Positions 19,270-27,648 of a stretch of DNA of 64,000 nt are shown piece by piece. The stretch lies in assembly GCF_048403405.1 (NCBI RefSeq), contig NZ_CP183129.1. One strand, 5' to 3'. The DNA comes from Escherichia coli. Lineage in GTDB: Bacteria > Pseudomonadota > Gammaproteobacteria > Enterobacterales > Enterobacteriaceae. How positions within the stretch are numbered: position 1 is the stretch's first letter; every line of letters begins with the position of its first letter. The position numbers and the translations under genes are program-made. The notes under the pieces are model-generated. The model was given only the letters and a program-made list of their open reading frames with translations, ran no database searches and had not been told where the DNA came from.

Positions 19270-20265
19270 ATGAAAAAGAAAAGACCCGTACTTCAGGATG
19301 TGGCTGACCGTGTAGGCGTGACCAAAATGACGGTCAGCCGTTTTTTACGCAACCCGGAGCAGGTTTCCGTCGCTCTACGCGGCAAGATTGCCGCCGCTCT
19401 TGATGAACTGGGTTATATTCCCAATCGCGCGCCCGATATCCTCTCTAATGCCACCAGCCGGGCGATTGGCGTCCTGTTACCTTCTCTCACCAACCAGGTT
19501 TTCGCGGAAGTATTACGCGGAATCGAAAGCGTCACCGACGCGCACGGTTATCAAACTATGCTGGCGCACTACGGTTATAAACCGGAAATGGAGCAAGAAC
19601 GCCTCGAATCAATGCTCTCATGGAATATCGATGGACTGATCCTCACCGAACGTACCCACACGCCACGCACCTTAAAGATGATTGAAGTGGCGGGGATTCC
19701 GGTGGTGGAGTTGATGGACAGCAAGTCGCCGTGCCTCGATATTGCCGTCGGTTTTGATAACTTTGAAGCGGCACGCCAGATGACCACCGCCATTATTGCT
19801 CGCGGGCATCGCCACATTGCCTATCTCGGCGCACGTCTCGACGAACGTACTATCATCAAACAGAAGGGATACGAACAGGCGATGCTGGATGCAGGCCTGG
19901 TGCCGTATAGCGTGATGGTTGAGCAATCTTCTTCTTACTCTTCCGGTATTGAACTGATTCGCCAGGCGCGGCGGGAATATCCGCAGCTGGATGGCGTGTT
20001 CTGTACCAACGATGACCTGGCGGTCGGCGCGGCGTTTGAATGCCAGCGTCTGGGGTTGAAAGTTCCTGACGATATGGCGATTGCCGGTTTCCACGGTCAT
20101 GACATTGGTCAGGTGATGGAACCACGGTTGGCGAGCGTACTGACGCCGCGTGAGCGGATGGGCAGTATTGGCGCTGAACGCCTGCTGGCGCGTATTCGTG
20201 GCGAATCTGTGACACCGAAAATGTTAGATTTAGGTTTCACCTTGTCACCGGGCGGATCTATTTAA
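19270..20265 (+). CDS. gntR: Gluconate repressor GntR (LacI family)
   Basis: 331 aa; N-terminal HTH LQDVADRVGVTKMTVSRFL; periplasmic-binding-like effector domain. Confidence 0.92.
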   Translation: MKKKRPVLQDVADRVGVTKMTVSRFLRNPEQVSVALRGKIAAALDELGYIPNRAPDILSNATSRAIGVLLPSLTNQVFAEVLRGIESVTDAHGYQTMLAHYGYKPEMEQERLESMLSWNIDGLILTERTHTPRTLKMIEVAGIPVVELMDSKSPCLDIAVGFDNFEAARQMTTAIIARGHRHIAYLGARLDERTIIKQKGYEQAMLDAGLVPYSVMVEQSSSYSSGIELIRQARREYPQLDGVFCTNDDLAVGAAFECQRLGLKVPDDMAIAGFHGHDIGQVMEPRLASVLTPRERMGSIGAERLLARIRGESVTPKMLDLGFTLSPGGSI

Positions 20266-20344
20266 GCCCACAAATTTGAAGTAGCTCACACTTATACACT
20301 TAAGGCACGGATGGATATTGCTTCTGATATTGTCCGGCCGGACA

Positions 20345-20934: not shown

Positions 20935-22275
20935 GTGACTACATTAACGCTTGTTTTAACAGCAGTAGGGTCTGTTTTACTGCTGCTGTTTTTAGTCATG
21001 AAGGCGCGTATGCACGCTTTCCTGGCTTTGATGGTGGTGTCCATGGGGGCTGGCCTTTTTTCCGGTATGCCGCTCGATAAAATCGCAGCGACGATGGAAA
21101 AAGGGATGGGAGGCACCCTCGGCTTCCTGGCGGTGGTTGTCGCCCTGGGAGCTATGTTTGGCAAGATCTTACATGAAACTGGCGCAGTCGATCAGATTGC
21201 CGTCAAAATGCTCAAATCCTTCGGTCACAGCCGCGCGCATTATGCCATCGGCCTTGCGGGGCTGGTCTGTGCGCTACCGCTGTTCTTTGAAGTGGCGATT
21301 GTTCTGCTGATTAGCGTTGCTTTCTCAATGGCGCGCCACACCGGTACGAACCTGGTGAAGCTGGTAATCCCATTATTCGCAGGCGTGGCGGCCGCGGCGG
21401 CATTCCTGGTACCGGGGCCAGCGCCAATGCTGCTGGCATCGCAGATGAATGCCGACTTTGGCTGGATGATCCTGATTGGCCTGTGTGCGGCAATTCCGGG
21501 AATGATTATTGCCGGGCCGCTGTGGGGTAATTTCATCAGCCGCTACGTGGAGTTGCATATTCCTGACGACATCAGCGAACCACATCTCGGTGAAGGCAAA
21601 ATGCCGTCCTTCGGATTCAGCCTGTCGCTGATCCTGTTGCCACTGGTGCTGGTGGGGCTGAAAACCATTGCCGCGCGTTTTGTGCCAGAAGGCTCTACCG
21701 CTTACGAATGGTTCGAGTTTATTGGTCATCCGTTTACCGCGATTCTGGTTGCTTGTCTGGTGGCGATTTACGGCCTGGCGATGCGTCAGGGTATGCCGAA
21801 AGATAAAGTGATGGAAATTTGCGGTCACGCGCTGCAACCGGCGGGGATCATTCTGCTGGTGATTGGTGCAGGCGGCGTGTTCAAACAGGTGCTGGTTGAC
21901 TCTGGCGTAGGTCCGGCACTGGGCGAAGCGTTAACCGGCATGGGCCTGCCGATTGCCATCACCTGCTTCGTGCTGGCCGCTGCAGTGCGCATCATTCAGG
22001 GGTCTGCAACCGTTGCCTGTTTAACGGCGGTGGGACTGGTGATGCCGGTTATTGAACAACTGAACTACTCCGGTGCGCAAATGGCGGCGCTGTCGATTTG
22101 TATCGCCGGTGGTTCGATTGTTGTCAGCCACGTTAACGACGCCGGTTTCTGGTTGTTCGGTAAATTTACCGGCGCGACTGAAGCCGAAACGCTGAAAACC
22201 TGGACCATGATGGAAACCATCCTCGGCACTGTCGGTGCCATCGTTGGGATGATTGCGTTCCAGCTGTTGAGTTAA
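20935..22275 (+). CDS. gntU: Low-affinity gluconate:H+ symporter GntU (GntP family)
   Basis: 446 aa polytopic membrane protein, paralogous to the gntT product at 61054..62370. Confidence 0.92.
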   Translation: MTTLTLVLTAVGSVLLLLFLVMKARMHAFLALMVVSMGAGLFSGMPLDKIAATMEKGMGGTLGFLAVVVALGAMFGKILHETGAVDQIAVKMLKSFGHSRAHYAIGLAGLVCALPLFFEVAIVLLISVAFSMARHTGTNLVKLVIPLFAGVAAAAAFLVPGPAPMLLASQMNADFGWMILIGLCAAIPGMIIAGPLWGNFISRYVELHIPDDISEPHLGEGKMPSFGFSLSLILLPLVLVGLKTIAARFVPEGSTAYEWFEFIGHPFTAILVACLVAIYGLAMRQGMPKDKVMEICGHALQPAGIILLVIGAGGVFKQVLVDSGVGPALGEALTGMGLPIAITCFVLAAAVRIIQGSATVACLTAVGLVMPVIEQLNYSGAQMAALSICIAGGSIVVSHVNDAGFWLFGKFTGATEAETLKTWTMMETILGTVGAIVGMIAFQLLS

Positions 22276-22285
22276 TTACTGCGAC

Positions 22286-22315
22286 AAATTACTGCGAGCT
22301 TGCTCGCAGTAATTC
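22286..22315 (+). terminator. Perfect palindrome after gntU (terminator-like, no U-tract)
   Basis: ttactgcgagc-tt-gctcgcagtaa; also a direct repeat of attactgcga (22275-22284 and 22289-22298). Confidence 0.4.
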
Positions 22316-22412
22316 ATTTCTCTTTTCACCTGTCTTCATCTTTTTGATCTTTCTCGCAAAAAGACCGGAACATTATCCGTTCTAATCACTGCGTTAACGG
22401 ACGAGGGAGAAG

Positions 22413-24512
22413 ATGATGGAGAAACACGGAGCTGAATTGCTTTTACAGCGGATGTTAGGAAATACCACCGCTACTTTCAGGGAAGGGCAATGGGAAGCCA
22501 TAGATGCAGTGGTTAATCAGCGGCGAAAACTGCTGGTTGTACAGCGCACCGGCTGGGGGAAAAGTGCCGTGTACTTCATCGCCAGTAAAATCTTCCGAGA
22601 TCGCGGCGCTGGCCCGACAATTATCATCTCTCCTTTGCTTGCCCTGATGCGTAACCAGGTTGCCGCCGCTGAACGGTTAGGTATTACGGCTGAAACGTTG
22701 AATTCTACAAACAGGGAAGAATGGCAGCGCATTAGCGATAAGTTGCTGCAAGGTGAGGTCGATTGCTTGCTGGTTTCCCCGGAACGTTTGGCAAACCAGG
22801 ACTTTATCGAAACGGTTTTGTATCCTATAGCCGATCGTATTGGCTTGCTTGTTGTCGACGAGGCGCACTGCATCTCTGATTGGGGCCACGATTTTCGCCC
22901 GGATTACCGACGTATATTAGATATTTTGCGCCAACTGCCTGCGAATACCCCTGTTCTGGGTACAACCGCGACAGCGAATAACCGTGTTGTTGAGGATATC
23001 CGTCAGCAATTGGGTGACATTGTGATTCAGCGTGGAACGCTGGCTCGCGAAAGTTTGGCGCTTGATGCCTTAGTCTTAGGAGAACAGTCATCCCGTCTGG
23101 CATGGTTAGCAACGGTTATCCCTCAGTTTTCCAAATCGGGAATTGTTTATACCCTGACGACTCGCGATGCTGAACTTGTCGCCGAGTGGTTAAGGAAAAA
23201 TGGTATCAGTGCATTTGCTTACTACAGCGGCGTGACTTGTGAAGGCGCGGAAGATTCTAATACTGCCAGGGAATATCTGGAGCAGGCACTGCTGGCAAAT
23301 AAAATCAAAGTGCTGGTCGCGACGACGGCATTAGGTATGGGGTTTGATAAACCTGATTTAGGTTTCGTCATTCATTATCAGATGCCGGGGTCTATTGTCG
23401 GTTACTACCAACAGGTGGGGCGTGCCGGGCGTGCTATAGATTCCGCAGTTGGCATATTGCTTTGTGGTGGTGAAGACCGCGCTATTCATCAATTCTTCCG
23501 TGAAAGCGCCTTTCCTGCGGAGGCGCAAATTCATGAAATACTCAACGTACTTAGCGAGAATGACGGTCTTACCCTACGAGGCATTGAACAACGGACGAAT
23601 CTTCGTTATGGGCAAATAGAAAAAGCACTGAAATTATTGGTAGCGGAAAATCCATCGCCTGTGGTGTATACCGAGAAATTATGGCGCAGAACTATCGTCA
23701 GTTTTTCTCCTGATCATGAACGAATTAACCATTTGATGAATCAGAGAAAAAGTGAGCTGGCAGACGTTGAAAGCTATATCACGACCAAGGAGTGCAAAAT
23801 GCAATTTCTGCGCCGTGCACTCGATGAGCCAAGTGCCGAACGTTGTGGTAAATGTAGTAGTTGTCTTCAGCATCCGTTATTGTCGCCCGACATTGATAGC
23901 GGCTTACTCCATGCGGCAAATTTATTTATTAAACACGCTGACCTGCCGTTAAATCTCAATAAACAGGTGGCAGCTGGGGCTTTTACGCAATACGGATTTA
24001 AAGGGAACTTGCCTGCGGGTTTACAAGGATCTACGGGGCGAATCCTTTCTCGTTGGGGAGATTCCGGGTGGGGAAAGCAGGTAGCACAGGAGAAAAAAAC
24101 GGGGCGCTTCAGTGATGAGCTGGTAGAAGCATGTGCGGAAATGGTTCGCCAACGCTGGAATCCGCATCCTGAACCAACCTGGGTATGCTGCGTTCCTTCA
24201 TTAAGACACCTCGACCTGGTTCCTGATTTTGCCCGGCGACTGGCGGCGAAACTTGGCTTACCTTTTATTGATGCCATTGAAAAAGTCGTGGACAATCCAC
24301 CGCAGAAAATGCAGCAAAACCGTTTTCACCAGTGTCAAAATCTCGACGGGGCGTTTGTGATTACCCCTCCTTTGATGCCAGGTCCGGCGTTGCTGGTTGA
24401 CGATATCGTGGATTCTGCATGGACGCTGACAGTTCTGACAGCACTGTTACGCCAGGCAGGTTGCCCGACGGTTTATCCTCTTGCCCTTGCTTCTACCTCG
24501 GTAAAAAATTGA
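22413..24512 (+). CDS. RecQ-family DNA helicase with C-terminal PRTase-like extension (699 aa); candidate toxin/effector of a PsyrTA/RqlHI-like module
   Basis: Motif 0 FREGQWEAI, Walker A TGWGKS, DEAH box VVDEAHCISDWGHDFRPDY, LGTTATA, HYQMPGSIVGYYQQVGRAGR; Zn-binding Cys cluster CKMQFLRRALDEPSAERCGKCSSC; C-terminal LLVDDIVDSAWTLTVL resembles a degenerate PRPP-binding loop. RBS GAGGGAGAAG before ATG. Not present at this locus in K-12. Confidence 0.85.
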   Translation: MMEKHGAELLLQRMLGNTTATFREGQWEAIDAVVNQRRKLLVVQRTGWGKSAVYFIASKIFRDRGAGPTIIISPLLALMRNQVAAAERLGITAETLNSTNREEWQRISDKLLQGEVDCLLVSPERLANQDFIETVLYPIADRIGLLVVDEAHCISDWGHDFRPDYRRILDILRQLPANTPVLGTTATANNRVVEDIRQQLGDIVIQRGTLARESLALDALVLGEQSSRLAWLATVIPQFSKSGIVYTLTTRDAELVAEWLRKNGISAFAYYSGVTCEGAEDSNTAREYLEQALLANKIKVLVATTALGMGFDKPDLGFVIHYQMPGSIVGYYQQVGRAGRAIDSAVGILLCGGEDRAIHQFFRESAFPAEAQIHEILNVLSENDGLTLRGIEQRTNLRYGQIEKALKLLVAENPSPVVYTEKLWRRTIVSFSPDHERINHLMNQRKSELADVESYITTKECKMQFLRRALDEPSAERCGKCSSCLQHPLLSPDIDSGLLHAANLFIKHADLPLNLNKQVAAGAFTQYGFKGNLPAGLQGSTGRILSRWGDSGWGKQVAQEKKTGRFSDELVEACAEMVRQRWNPHPEPTWVCCVPSLRHLDLVPDFARRLAAKLGLPFIDAIEKVVDNPPQKMQQNRFHQCQNLDGAFVITPPLMPGPALLVDDIVDSAWTLTVLTALLRQAGCPTVYPLALASTSVKN

Positions 24513-25714
24513 TGAATCTTTCAGCCAATGCACAAGCAACCCTCCTGCTAACCAGCGATTTTTCTCGCGCGGCGGCGAGTGAGTATAAACCTCTTAGTAA
24601 TAGTGAATGGGGGAAGTTTGCATTATGGCTGAAGCACCAACGTATCAGTCCCGCCGATCTTCTGGTGCCGCAACCGCAAGAGAAACTTACAGGCTGGAGC
24701 GATCCGCGTATTTCTCAGGAGCGTATTCTTGGCTTGCTGGCGCGTGGTCATAGTCTGGCGTTGGCGGTAGATAAGTGGCAACGCGCCGGATTATGGATCT
24801 TAACCCGCGGAGATGCCGATTATCCCGTTCGCTTGAAAAACCGATTGCGAACGGATGCTCCTCCCGTTTTATTTGGCTGCGGGAATAAAGCATTATTGCA
24901 AGCGGAAGGTATGGCGATTGTTGGCTCGCGAGATGCTCCGACTGCCGATTTGCGCTATACCCAACAACTGGCAGCGAAACTGGCCCAACAGGGGATTTGC
25001 GTTATCTCTGGTGGTGCGCGAGGTATTGATGAATGTGCAATGGCGTCGGCACTGGAGGCCGGGGGAACTGCCGTTGGCGTATTAGCTGATAGTTTGTTAA
25101 AAACAAGCACGTTAGTGAAATGGCGTAAAGGGCTTATAGCAGGCAACCTGGTGTTGATTTCACCGTTTTACCCAGAGGTACGTTTCACTGTCGGCAATGC
25201 GATGGCGCGGAATAAATATATTTATTGCCTTGCTGAAAGCGCAATGGTTGTACGTGCGGGAATGACCGGTGGAACGATAACCGGAGCGATGGAGGCGTTA
25301 AAACATCAGTGGCTGCCTGTTCTGGTTAAACCAAATCAGGATGTGCAATCAGCCAATTCACGTTTAGTAGAAAATGGGGCGTCATGGAGTGCTGAACAGG
25401 CTGAGAATGTGACGATCAGACTGCCAGATGTTCCTGGGCTGATGTATGACAGAGCACTCCGTAACGCTCAACCAGAATTGTTTTCGCTGCACGAAGATGA
25501 CGCAAATTACGCAGTAATGCCCGCGCATACCCCTGTCGATTTTTATCAACTCTTTGTGGCGGAACTGGCGATCCTTGCAAAGGAATCGATAAGTATTGAA
25601 AGGCTGGCGTCTTGTACTGGTTTAACCATCGAACAAATTAGTGTGTGGCTGAACCGCGCAGAAGAAGAGGGAAGGGTTATCCGATTGGGCGAAGGTCATT
25701 ATCAGTTCAGGTAA
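24512..25714 (+). CDS. DprA/Smf-like (SLOG-superfamily) protein (400 aa); candidate antitoxin/partner
   Basis: ORF 24419..25714; ATG at 24512 (MNLSANAQ...) overlaps the helicase TGA by 1 nt. DprA hallmarks: DADYPVRLKNRLRTDAPPVLFGCGNKALL, Rossmann segment IVGSRDAPT...ISGGARGIDECAM, C-terminal winged-helix-like region. Confidence 0.85.
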   Translation: MNLSANAQATLLLTSDFSRAAASEYKPLSNSEWGKFALWLKHQRISPADLLVPQPQEKLTGWSDPRISQERILGLLARGHSLALAVDKWQRAGLWILTRGDADYPVRLKNRLRTDAPPVLFGCGNKALLQAEGMAIVGSRDAPTADLRYTQQLAAKLAQQGICVISGGARGIDECAMASALEAGGTAVGVLADSLLKTSTLVKWRKGLIAGNLVLISPFYPEVRFTVGNAMARNKYIYCLAESAMVVRAGMTGGTITGAMEALKHQWLPVLVKPNQDVQSANSRLVENGASWSAEQAENVTIRLPDVPGLMYDRALRNAQPELFSLHEDDANYAVMPAHTPVDFYQLFVAELAILAKESISIERLASCTGLTIEQISVWLNRAEEEGRVIRLGEGHYQFR

Positions 25715-25716
25715 TA

Positions 25717-25754
25717 AAACAGGTGCCGCGTCTGGTTGTGTGCAGCACCTGTTT
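25717..25754. terminator. Hairpin between the convergent DprA-like gene and yhgN
   Basis: aaacaggtgc-(loop)-gcacctgttt inverted repeat. Confidence 0.45.
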
Positions 25755-25759
25755 GAACC

Positions 25760-26353
25760 TTACCCCTTCATCCACATTCGAATCCCGTCGAGGAACATCT
25801 GGGTTGCCATCATCACCAGAATCAATCCCATCAGGCGTTCAAGTGCATTCACCCCTTTCTCGCCCAGCAGACGTAAAAATAGCGAAGACTGTAGCAGGAT
25901 GACAAAGGTGCCGCCCCAGGCCAGTAGCAGAGCAATTACCAGATGTCCCATCTGATTCGGGTACTGATGAGACAACAACATCAGCGTGGCGAGAATAGTC
26001 GGCCCGGCGACTAACGGAATTGCCAACGGCACGATAAACGGCTCTTCACCTGCCGGAAGCCCGCTGCTATTTCCTGAAGCACTGGGGAAAATCATCTTAA
26101 TGGCGATCAGAAACAGAATGATGCCGCCAGAAATGGAGACGGTTTCTGCCCGCAGGCTAAGAAATGCCAGAATTTTCTCACCCGCAAACAGGAACACCAG
26201 CATCACCAGGAGAGCAATAAGCAACTCTCGCACCATGATTGCCCGCCGTCTTTTCGGTTCAGTATGTTTCAGTACGGACATGAAAATAGGTAGGTTTCCG
26301 AGCGGATCCATAATCAGGATCAATAAAACTGCTGCAGAAATGATTTCATTCAT
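25760..26353 (-). CDS. yhgN: MarC-family inner membrane protein YhgN
   Basis: 197 aa hydrophobic protein MNEIISAAVLLILIMDPLGNLPIFMSVL... Confidence 0.88.
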   Translation of the reverse strand: MNEIISAAVLLILIMDPLGNLPIFMSVLKHTEPKRRRAIMVRELLIALLVMLVFLFAGEKILAFLSLRAETVSISGGIILFLIAIKMIFPSASGNSSGLPAGEEPFIVPLAIPLVAGPTILATLMLLSHQYPNQMGHLVIALLLAWGGTFVILLQSSLFLRLLGEKGVNALERLMGLILVMMATQMFLDGIRMWMKG

Positions 26354-26544
26354 AACTCAAATTCCCTGATAATTGCCGCGGACTTTCTGCGTGCTAACAA
26401 AGCAGGATAAGTCGCATTACTGATGGCTTCGCTATCATTGATTAATTTCACTTGCGACTTTGGCTGCTTTTTGTATGGTGAAAGATGTGCCAAGAGGAGA
26501 CCGGCACATTTATACAGCACACATCTTTGCAGGAAAAAACGCTT

Positions 26545-27648
26545 ATGAAAAATGTTGGTTTTATCGGCTGGCGCGGTATGGTCGGCTCCGTTCTCATGCA
26601 ACGCATGGTTGAAGAGCGCGACTTCGACGCCATTCGCCCTGTCTTCTTTTCTACTTCTCAGCTTGGTCAGGCTGCGCCGTCTTTTGGCGGAACCACTGGC
26701 ACACTTCAGGATGCCTTTGATCTGGAGGCGCTAAAGGCCCTCGATATCATTGTGACCTGTCAGGGCGGCGATTATACCAACGAAATCTATCCAAAGCTTC
26801 GTGAAAGCGGATGGCAAGGTTACTGGATTGACGCAGCATCGTCTCTGCGCATGAAAGATGACGCCATCATCATTCTTGACCCCGTCAATCAGGACGTCAT
26901 TACCGACGGATTAAATAATGGCATCAGGACTTTTGTTGGCGGTAACTGTACCGTAAGCCTGATGTTGATGTCGTTGGGTGGTTTATTCGCCAATGATCTT
27001 GTTGATTGGGTGTCCGTTGCCACCTACCAGGCCGCTTCCGGCGGTGGTGCGCGACATATGCGTGAGTTATTAACCCAGATGGGCCATCTGTATGGCCATG
27101 TGGCAGATGAACTCGCGACCCCGTCCTCTGCTATTCTCGATATCGAACGCAAAGTCACAACTTTAACCCGTAGCGGTGAGCTGCCGGTGGATAACTTTGG
27201 CGTGCCGCTGGCGGGTAGCCTGATTCCGTGGATCGACAAACAGCTCGATAACGGTCAGAGCCGCGAAGAATGGAAAGGGCAGGCGGAAACCAACAAGATC
27301 CTCAACACATCTTCCGTAATTCCGGTAGATGGTTTATGTGTGCGTGTCGGGGCATTGCGCTGCCACAGCCAGGCATTCACTATTAAATTGAAAAAAGATG
27401 TGTCTATTCCGACCGTGGAAGAACTGCTGGCTGCGCACAATCCGTGGGCGAAAGTCGTTCCGAACGATCGGGAAATCACTATGCGTGAGCTAACCCCAGC
27501 TGCCGTTACCGGCACGCTGACCACGCCGGTAGGCCGCCTGCGTAAGCTGAATATGGGACCAGAGTTCCTGTCAGCCTTTACCGTGGGCGACCAGCTGCTG
27601 TGGGGGGCCGCGGAGCCGCTGCGTCGGATGCTTCGTCAACTGGCGTAA
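26545..27648 (+). CDS. asd: Aspartate-semialdehyde dehydrogenase Asd (367 aa)
   Basis: ORF 26485..27648; start taken at [17 protein letters not shown] (26545); active-site region [11 protein letters not shown]. Confidence 0.93.

Follow-up and report, generated by a model that had tools for sequence, protein, structure and literature searches.

The closest described counterparts of the locus examined here are the RqlHI pair of extraintestinal pathogenic Escherichia coli (ExPEC) strain F11 (Russell & Mulvey 2015) and the PsyrTA defence systems (Sberro 2013; Millman 2022), which are the same cassette. RqlH and RqlI have been studied in ExPEC; the toxicity of the F11 orthologue and its neutralisation were published (PMC4670107), and rqlH and rqlI were found to be co-transcribed (Russell & Mulvey 2015, PMC4670107). 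Both the F11 work and the defence papers took the two genes to be an operon "separated from upstream genes", with a native promoter in the spacer (PMC4670107; Millman et al.). We analysed that spacer, 137 nucleotides (nt) between gntU and psyrT (22276-22412), in a window of 64,000 nt of E. coli DNA (contig NZ_CP183129.1, assembly GCF_048403405.1); the window is the whole stretch, and positions are counted from its first letter. With a probability of roughly 55%, the spacer is a leader of the PsyrTA cassette in which a conserved, probably leaky terminator of the gntKU transcript is followed by a probable weak or activator-dependent promoter.

The two genes behind the spacer encode a RecQ-family helicase (22413/22416-24512) and a DprA-like protein (ending at 25714). 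They are the already known PsyrTA (RqlHI) toxin-antitoxin and phage-defence pair, because the PADLOC matches to PsyrT and PsyrA, the Pfam domains, the RefSeq annotation and the published RqlHI operon (PMC4670107) all identify them as such. The helicase matched PADLOC PsyrT with E = 0 over residues 3-698. Its DEAD and Helicase_C domains scored above the Pfam cut-off and RecQ_Zn_bind scored below the curated cut-off (21.1 versus 25 bits); a Pribosyltran domain is recorded in PsyrT orthologues. The toxin gene psyrT (rqlH; 22413-24512, + strand, RefSeq start 22416) encodes this RecQ-like helicase with a C-terminal phosphoribosyltransferase domain. The DprA-like (SLOG) protein is encoded directly 3' of psyrT, and it matched PADLOC PsyrA (2e-201, from residue 32) and Pfam DNA_processg_A (7e-50).

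A perfect palindrome occupies 22287-22314, beginning 12 nt past the gntU TAA and lying 99-126 nt upstream of the psyrT start codon. A reading of this DNA from the letters alone (the sequence-only reading) had placed it at 22288-22313 and had also called it perfect; it is a 13+2+13 inverted repeat with the arms AATTACTGCGAGC and GCTCGCAGTAATT. As + strand RNA it forms a hairpin of 12-13 bp with a CUUG loop, a folding energy of -16.6 kcal/mol and z = -6.7 against shuffled sequences. When the 12-pair helix was followed through an alignment of nine lineages (A3), 96.3% of the cells were paired. The five outer pairs carried changes on both sides (AATTA/TAATT, TATTG/CAATA, ATAAG/CTTAT, TAGCG/CGCTA and AAAG/CTTT), and the covariation score was 0.412, compared with 0.140 in shuffles (0/500) and at most 0.17 in slid controls. 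Three of the seven non-Watson-Crick cells were G-U, which fits a + strand RNA and is not significant. The seven inner pairs hardly varied; the core CTGCGAG-N4-CTCGCAG was invariant apart from small departures in the lineages L096 and L097. These inner pairs may be a GC clamp or may be read in a sequence-specific manner.

The core was found in 13/13 psyrT loci linked to gntU and in 0/80 distant psyrT loci, and no palindrome stood upstream of psyrT in most of the 25 distant loci inspected; such a palindrome was thus rejected as a feature common to psyrT upstream regions. Where the insert is missing (K-12, Salmonella, K. aerogenes and the locus L221), gntU was followed by unrelated hairpins and this one was absent, which answers in the negative the earlier question of whether the hairpin is native to gntU. 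The hairpin is a property of the gntU-linked PsyrTA haplotype, neither native to insert-free gntU nor general to PsyrTA. An Rfam search of 22100-22600 returned only noise (best match 18.9 bits against a threshold of 85, all E > 0.4). A scan of metagenomes for GCTGCGAG-N4-CTCGCAGC retrieved 120 environmental loci; all were unrelated, and GntU or PsyrT was encoded in none of them. Two other identities were tried and dropped. A repetitive palindrome of the REP/BIME type (repetitive extragenic palindrome/bacterial interspersed mosaic element) was rejected, with one place per genome in 1650 genomes and one match in the window. The LexA consensus has the spacing CTG-N10-CAG; the half-sites here resemble its TACTG...CAGTA and are spaced CTG-N12-CAG.

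The stem is followed on the + strand by the interrupted, T-rich tail CATTTCTCTTTTCAC (22315-22329), a degenerate U-tract. Immediately after the hairpin, in CATTTCTCTTTTC, T made up 5 of the first 8 nt and 8 of the first 12, so the earlier description of a palindrome "without a U-tract" was overstated. The tail was T-rich in 9/9 lineages; the same hairpin ran into UUUUU in L097 and UUUU in L096, and L095 had a TTTTTT run a few bases into the tail. A terminator scan of the sequence listed the site as terminator-like. On a discriminant of the d'Aubenton-Carafa type (ViennaRNA energies), the hairpin and tail scored an intermediate d = -3.3, within the range of -8 to +29 in the orthologues. The K-12 gntU terminator scored +19.6 and three textbook terminators +38 to +48, whereas random 75-nt segments of the window centred on -44 (median), with the 99th percentile at -6.6 and only 0.5% reaching -3.3. 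By its sequence, the element appears clearly terminator-like but weaker than the terminators that it replaced.

Partial intrinsic terminators with imperfect U-tracts are the nearest known class. The likeness lies in a GC-cored stem-loop after a stop codon on the sense strand, a T-rich stretch behind it, compensatory changes in the stem and the canonical UUUU(U) tail of some orthologues; the differences are the interrupted E. coli tail (UAAUU/CAUUUCUCUUUUC), the low score and the sequence-invariant 7-bp core. The native gntU terminators, CCCGGTAG-N6/8-CTACCGGG TTCTTTTC in K-12 and AAAAAGCCACTCA...TGAGTGGCTTTTTT in Salmonella, hold the same position after the gntU stop and presumably have the same task of ending the gntKU transcript, but they are unrelated in sequence, have clean U-tracts and score higher. 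The L221 hairpin also had a clean U-tract; that of K. aerogenes was not obviously a + strand terminator. In the favoured interpretation the hairpin (22287-22314) and tail (22315-22329) would act as an intrinsic-type terminator and as the 3'-end hairpin of the gntKU transcript. Since the U-tract is interrupted, incomplete termination is a reasonable expectation.

Part of any leak could be halted by Rho within the 80 nt behind the hairpin. This + strand stretch (22315-22394) is pyrimidine-rich and G-poor; counted from 22310, the 80 nt after the hairpin core contained 21 C and 7 G, and the lineages ranged over 16-25 C and 4-12 G. No conserved structure was found in it when the nine lineages were folded as an alignment. 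The composition is that of a Rho loading (rut-like) site, and the stretch may serve as a back-up terminator. An anti-Shine-Dalgarno pairing of the CU-rich tract, seen in a single-sequence fold, was discarded; it was not conserved in the alignment fold.

The replacement of the native spacer was visible at both ends of the insert. In K-12 the gntU and yhgN stop codons are only 56 bp apart; similarity between K-12 and the window haplotype ended exactly at the gntU TAA (22273-22275, + strand) and resumed at the yhgN stop, and the 56-bp K-12 spacer showed no similarity above shuffles to either end of the insert. In cassette haplotypes the native gntU-yhgN spacer, together with the gntU terminator in it, has given way entirely to the PsyrTA spacer. 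The gntU-psyrT spacer was present in 1650/5426 complete E. coli genomes (about 30%, ExPEC and O157 lineages included), in one copy per genome and always flanked by gntU and the helicase gene. The same position behind a co-oriented gntU, with a spacer of 139-141 nt, was occupied by PsyrT relatives (69-74% identity) in Citrobacter freundii, Silvania and five further enterobacterial lineages. In these lineages GntU was 95-97% identical, PsyrT 69-74% and PsyrA 59-65%. The left junction with co-oriented gntU was constant in 9/9 lineages and the right flank differed, with yhgN present, absent or replaced. Across genera the spacer tolerated substitutions and almost no insertions or deletions; it is constrained in length.

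Variation around this arrangement was of several kinds. In L095 (6294-7589) the genes to the right of psyrA were unrelated to yhgN; in another lineage psyrTA lay directly downstream of glmS (L098, 2871-3001); and a related genome carried a gene with a VasX_N domain after an intact canonical terminator downstream of gntU (L223, 3841-4240). Two spacer alleles were seen in E. coli, the window type (739 genomes, at least 95% identity) and an O157/Shiga toxin-producing E. coli (STEC) type (897 genomes, 80-90%). When the window was compared with strain Z226-1, the sole divergent 100-nt bin in 4.8 kb was 22335-22434, with 21 differences against at most 8 in the others. Comparison with L004, L005 and L006 placed the patch of allelic difference at 22353-22425, within which the island TCCGTTCTAATCACTGC (22376-22392) was unchanged; mosaic patches similar to this one also occurred within psyrT of other strains. 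The spacer was sought on plasmids and phages and was not found; the search yielded only a diverged PsyrTA homologue in a restriction-modification (R-M) operon.

Outside the hairpin and ribosome-binding site, no column of the spacer was invariant over the nine lineages except TGAT (22345-22348), TC (22354-22355) and AAT (22384-22386). The first two belong to a conserved, CRP/FNR-like dyad box, TTTGATCTTTCTCGCA (22343-22358, + strand), of the form TGA-N6-TC(A/G)C; the third belongs to the box TCTAAT (22381-22386) within the + strand island at 22376-22392, a candidate -10 region. The spacings were nearly fixed despite base differences of 30-50%: hairpin centre and box centre (22350.5 in the window) were 49-51 bp apart, exactly 50.0 in 7/9 lineages, and the box centre was 34.5-35.5 bp from the last T of xxxAAT. 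If xxxAAT is taken as a -10 element, the centres of the box and the hairpin would lie at -41.5 or -42.5 and at about -91.5, respectively. We consider it most likely that the cassette has a promoter of its own, weak or activator-dependent, made up of the TGAT...TC box and the xxxAAT box, from which transcription is predicted to start near 22380-22393.

No match to the sigma-70 consensus was found on the + strand from 21900 to 26600, in agreement with the earlier statement that no clear sigma-70 promoter was present. The best candidate in a position weight matrix (PWM) scan, TTGATC-18-GAACAT, was weak (6.1 bits of about 17); its -10 candidate GAACAT (22368-22373, + strand), 18 bp after TTGATC, was specific to the window allele and not conserved. 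TTGATC could be an alternative reading of the dyad box, as a -35-like hexamer. A consistent sigma-70 promoter across the orthologues was rejected; PWM scores were 4-9 of about 17, and the positions did not coincide except for the TTGATx hexamer.

In class II and class III CRP/FNR promoters, for example those of the ansB type, activator sites lie near -41.5 and -91.5. The spacer resembles them in having two TGxGA-N6-TCxCA dyads at a distance of 50 bp, with 34.5-35.5 bp between the downstream dyad and the final T of xxxAAT. It differs from them in its weak 8/10 matches, in lacking G at CRP position 5 and A at -11, and in the oxygen-insensitivity of rqlHI, which speaks against FNR. In E. coli TTTGATCTTTCTCGCA matched the CRP core at 8/10 positions and the FNR core at 7/10, other lineages reached 9/10 for one of the two, and the hairpin core itself was 8/10 to the CRP core; CRP-core matches at 8/10 occur at chance frequency, with 26 found in the window and 24 expected. 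The CRP/FNR geometry is thus a lead and not a finding, given the chance-level matches, the missing G at CRP position 5, the box that never has A at -11 and the mRNA that was unchanged in low oxygen. Elsewhere in the window, TTTGAAGTAGCTCACA in the gntR-gntK spacer (20275-20290) had one mismatch to the CRP core consensus and is probably where CRP binds at the gntK promoter; the box upstream of psyrT has an identical left half, TTTGA.

This geometry also raises the possibility, in our view unlikely, that the palindrome chiefly serves as DNA bound by a dimeric regulator and that any terminator activity is secondary. The regulator could be PsyrA/RqlI, acting on its own operon through a predicted C-terminal helix-turn-helix (HTH), or a CRP/FNR-family activator at two sites; in the two-site version, the activator would bind the core TGCGA-N6-TCGCA near -91.5 and the TGA-N6-TC box near -41.5, in the style of a class III promoter. 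It would account for core half-sites that are invariant while their flanks covary, for two dyads that match the CRP core at 8/10 with centres 49-51 bp apart in nine lineages, and for a distance from box to AAT that gives -41.5 or -42.5. A C-terminal HTH was predicted in RqlI (PMC4670107), the HTH_26 match here being below threshold (E = 0.03), and the direct repeat supplies a third half-site in E. coli. However, the palindrome is placed 12 nt past the gntU stop and some 100 nt short of the psyrT start, free of any overlapping promoter-like site in E. coli; the G expected at CRP position 5 was missing from every lineage, and the 8/10 matches are at chance level. Furthermore, rqlHI mRNA was unchanged under low oxygen in F11, against FNR (PMC4670107), most distant psyrT loci lack an upstream palindrome, and the G-U cells and T-rich tail fit an RNA reading. 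A toxin-antitoxin operator, recognised by a palindrome that overlaps the operon promoter, was also considered and set aside, no such overlap being found.

The two functions could be combined, although we think this doubtful: the RNA hairpin would attenuate gntKU transcription while the DNA core and the TGA-N6-TC box 50 bp downstream formed a platform for a CRP/FNR-family protein or the PsyrA HTH. If so, a toxin-antitoxin and defence cassette would be under carbon-status control or autocontrol, through a promoter of class III geometry set within the terminator of the upstream gene. Such a dual role would explain why a spacer of 139-141 nt tolerates substitutions but almost no insertions or deletions across genera.

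Under the favoured interpretation of a leaky terminator followed by a separate promoter, psyrTA would be expressed mainly on its own, and read-through would contribute a minor, gluconate-dependent share. The gntKU operon is under GntR/gluconate and cAMP-CRP control, and glucose without gluconate does not induce it. In M9 medium with 0.1% glucose and no gluconate, rqlHI mRNA and RqlH-dependent phenotypes were observed (PMC4670107); therefore some rqlHI expression is independent of gluconate. A PsyrTA clone with at least 200 nt of upstream sequence slowed the growth of K-12 (10.1101/2024.12.20.629700). The supplements of an expression preprint contained no rows for PsyrTA or gntU.

Several observations weigh against this interpretation. 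The U-tract is poor and the score is below that of every reference terminator used, and the 7-bp core of the stem is fixed in sequence, more than pairing alone would demand. The candidate promoters all scored unconvincingly, A is never found at -11 in the xxxAAT box, the -35-like TTGATC has no conserved -10 at 17-18 bp, and the CRP-core matches are at the frequency expected by chance. A literature search turned up neither mapped 5' or 3' ends for the locus nor any account of gntU-rqlH co-transcription. In addition, for the STEC 1299 clone of PsyrTA, which began at ATTACTGCGACAAATTACTGCGAGC... and so had precisely this spacer as its "native promoter", no defence was recorded (Millman et al. Table S2); the cloned spacer is the O157-type allele of the window spacer, and a promoter that is weak or inactive would fit this result. 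The strict linkage to co-oriented gntU and the existence of operon-embedded homologues fit a dependence on upstream transcription.

These last points favour an alternative that we hold to be rather improbable, in which psyrTA is simply the tail of the gntKU transcript. The hairpin would then only stabilise or process the RNA, the cassette would have no promoter of its own, basal read-through from gntR would contribute, and the psyrTA level would follow GntR/gluconate and cAMP-CRP control. A terminator score that is weak against the insert-free alleles, the lack of a consensus promoter, a gntU linkage that is universal while the right flank differs, and the inactive STEC construct with the spacer alone all agree with it. 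The diverged PsyrTA on the E. coli IncF plasmid NZ_OX030731.1 (L225, 3441-6958; about 71% nt identity within psyrT) also supports it: the order is hsdM-hsdS-psyrT-psyrA-hsdR with gaps of 12-14 nt and no hairpin, compared with a 137-nt spacer bearing a hairpin and boxes in the window. There, psyrT is part of a type I R-M operon and follows hsdS by only 14 nt, so its transcription must come from upstream. By a rough count, about 15/73 distant homologues likewise lie less than 40 nt behind a co-oriented open reading frame; together with the R-M-embedded pair, they show that PsyrTA can be driven from upstream genes. On the other hand, the hairpin and its T-rich tail are conserved and far above background, conserved boxes stand at fixed spacing downstream of the hairpin, RqlH was expressed and toxic in glucose medium without gluconate (PMC4670107), and the plasmid clone with at least 200 nt of upstream sequence did affect K-12 growth.

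The sequence-only reading had proposed that the cassette might be transcribed by read-through from gntKU. This is conceivable because a strong hairpin with a poor U-tract and no consensus promoter precede the helicase gene; its strong form is weakened by the conserved hairpin, the boxes and the expression in glucose. A contribution by read-through from the gluconate operon is a plausible hypothesis.

The direct repeat that had been noticed overlapping the palindrome proved exact over 11 nt. The two copies of AATTACTGCGA lie at 22274-22284 and 22287-22297; the first overlaps the gntU stop codon and, on the + strand, is also fully complementary to 22304-22314. Only three exact copies were found in the 64-kb window, namely the two repeats and the inverted arm. 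The exact repeat was confined to E. coli and partly recognisable in Silvania, L095 and Citrobacter. The distance from stop codon to core was 16-18 nt in all lineages, showing that the repeat added no length. Strain HB6 (L224, 1500-1530, equivalent to window 22274-22299) had a natural 13-nt deletion of one repeat unit, so that the 5' arm of its hairpin begins inside the gntU stop codon (TAATTACTGCGAGCTTGCTCGCAGTAATT); this is a loss typical of slippage between direct repeats.

The repeat and palindrome had also been suggested to be a scar of insertion, either a target-site duplication or a recombination site. An exact 11-nt repeat at the junction, with one copy overlapping the stop codon of gntU, is what gave rise to the idea. 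However, the two copies stand together at the left end, offset by 13 nt, and no target-site duplication or terminal inverted repeat was found, with no copy of AATTACTGCGA near the right junction (25715-25760). There is no recombinase gene, the exact repeat is specific to E. coli and was lost by the slippage deletion in HB6, and the same junction architecture is shared by genera whose PsyrT is only 69-74% identical. A scar is thus highly improbable and we rejected it; the junction arrangement is ancient and common to several genera.

The element itself is of an ordinary kind and the cassette was already known, but the hairpin and the boxes provide concrete targets. Imbalance of PsyrTA/RqlHI affects gut persistence and genome stability. 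If a measurable share of expression comes by way of a leaky gntU terminator, the levels of toxin and antitoxin would rise on gluconate, a major carbon source in the gut. If read-through does make such a contribution, expression from plasmid clones with the spacer alone would be too low, a possible reason for negative defence assays.

The gene order in the window was gntR (19270-20265), gntK, gntU (20935-22275), the two extra genes, yhgN (25760-26353, minus strand), asd and glgB. A Shine-Dalgarno sequence of psyrT, GAGGGAG, was read from the sequence at 22403-22409 (+ strand); this segment was purine-rich across all lineages. The antitoxin gene psyrA (rqlI; 24512-25714, + strand) is annotated in RefSeq from 24419, as an open reading frame overlapping psyrT by 94 nt. 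The psyrT and psyrA frames share a stop/start overlap, TGATG (24510-24514), in which the last base of the psyrT TGA (24510-24512) is also the A of an in-frame ATG (24512), and psyrA orthologues begin at a stop/start overlap; the true psyrA start is probably 24512, giving a product of 400 amino acids.

Between psyrA and yhgN, a hairpin at 25717-25754 folded better on the minus strand (-21 kcal/mol) and was followed there by UUUUAUUA. It looks like the yhgN terminator, good on the minus strand, and a weaker plus-strand terminator for psyrA.

In two strains psyrT is annotated as a frameshifted pseudogene, CEC08123 (L005, 4316-6440) and HB6 (L224, 1629-3133); the antitoxin gene of CEC08123 is annotated as intact, and psyrA of HB6 lay outside the stretch retrieved. 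In the strain of L001, which matched the window at 100% over a 501-nt query, a type VI secretion gene of the Hcp1 family is annotated beside yhhY, upstream of it (L001, 1-34).

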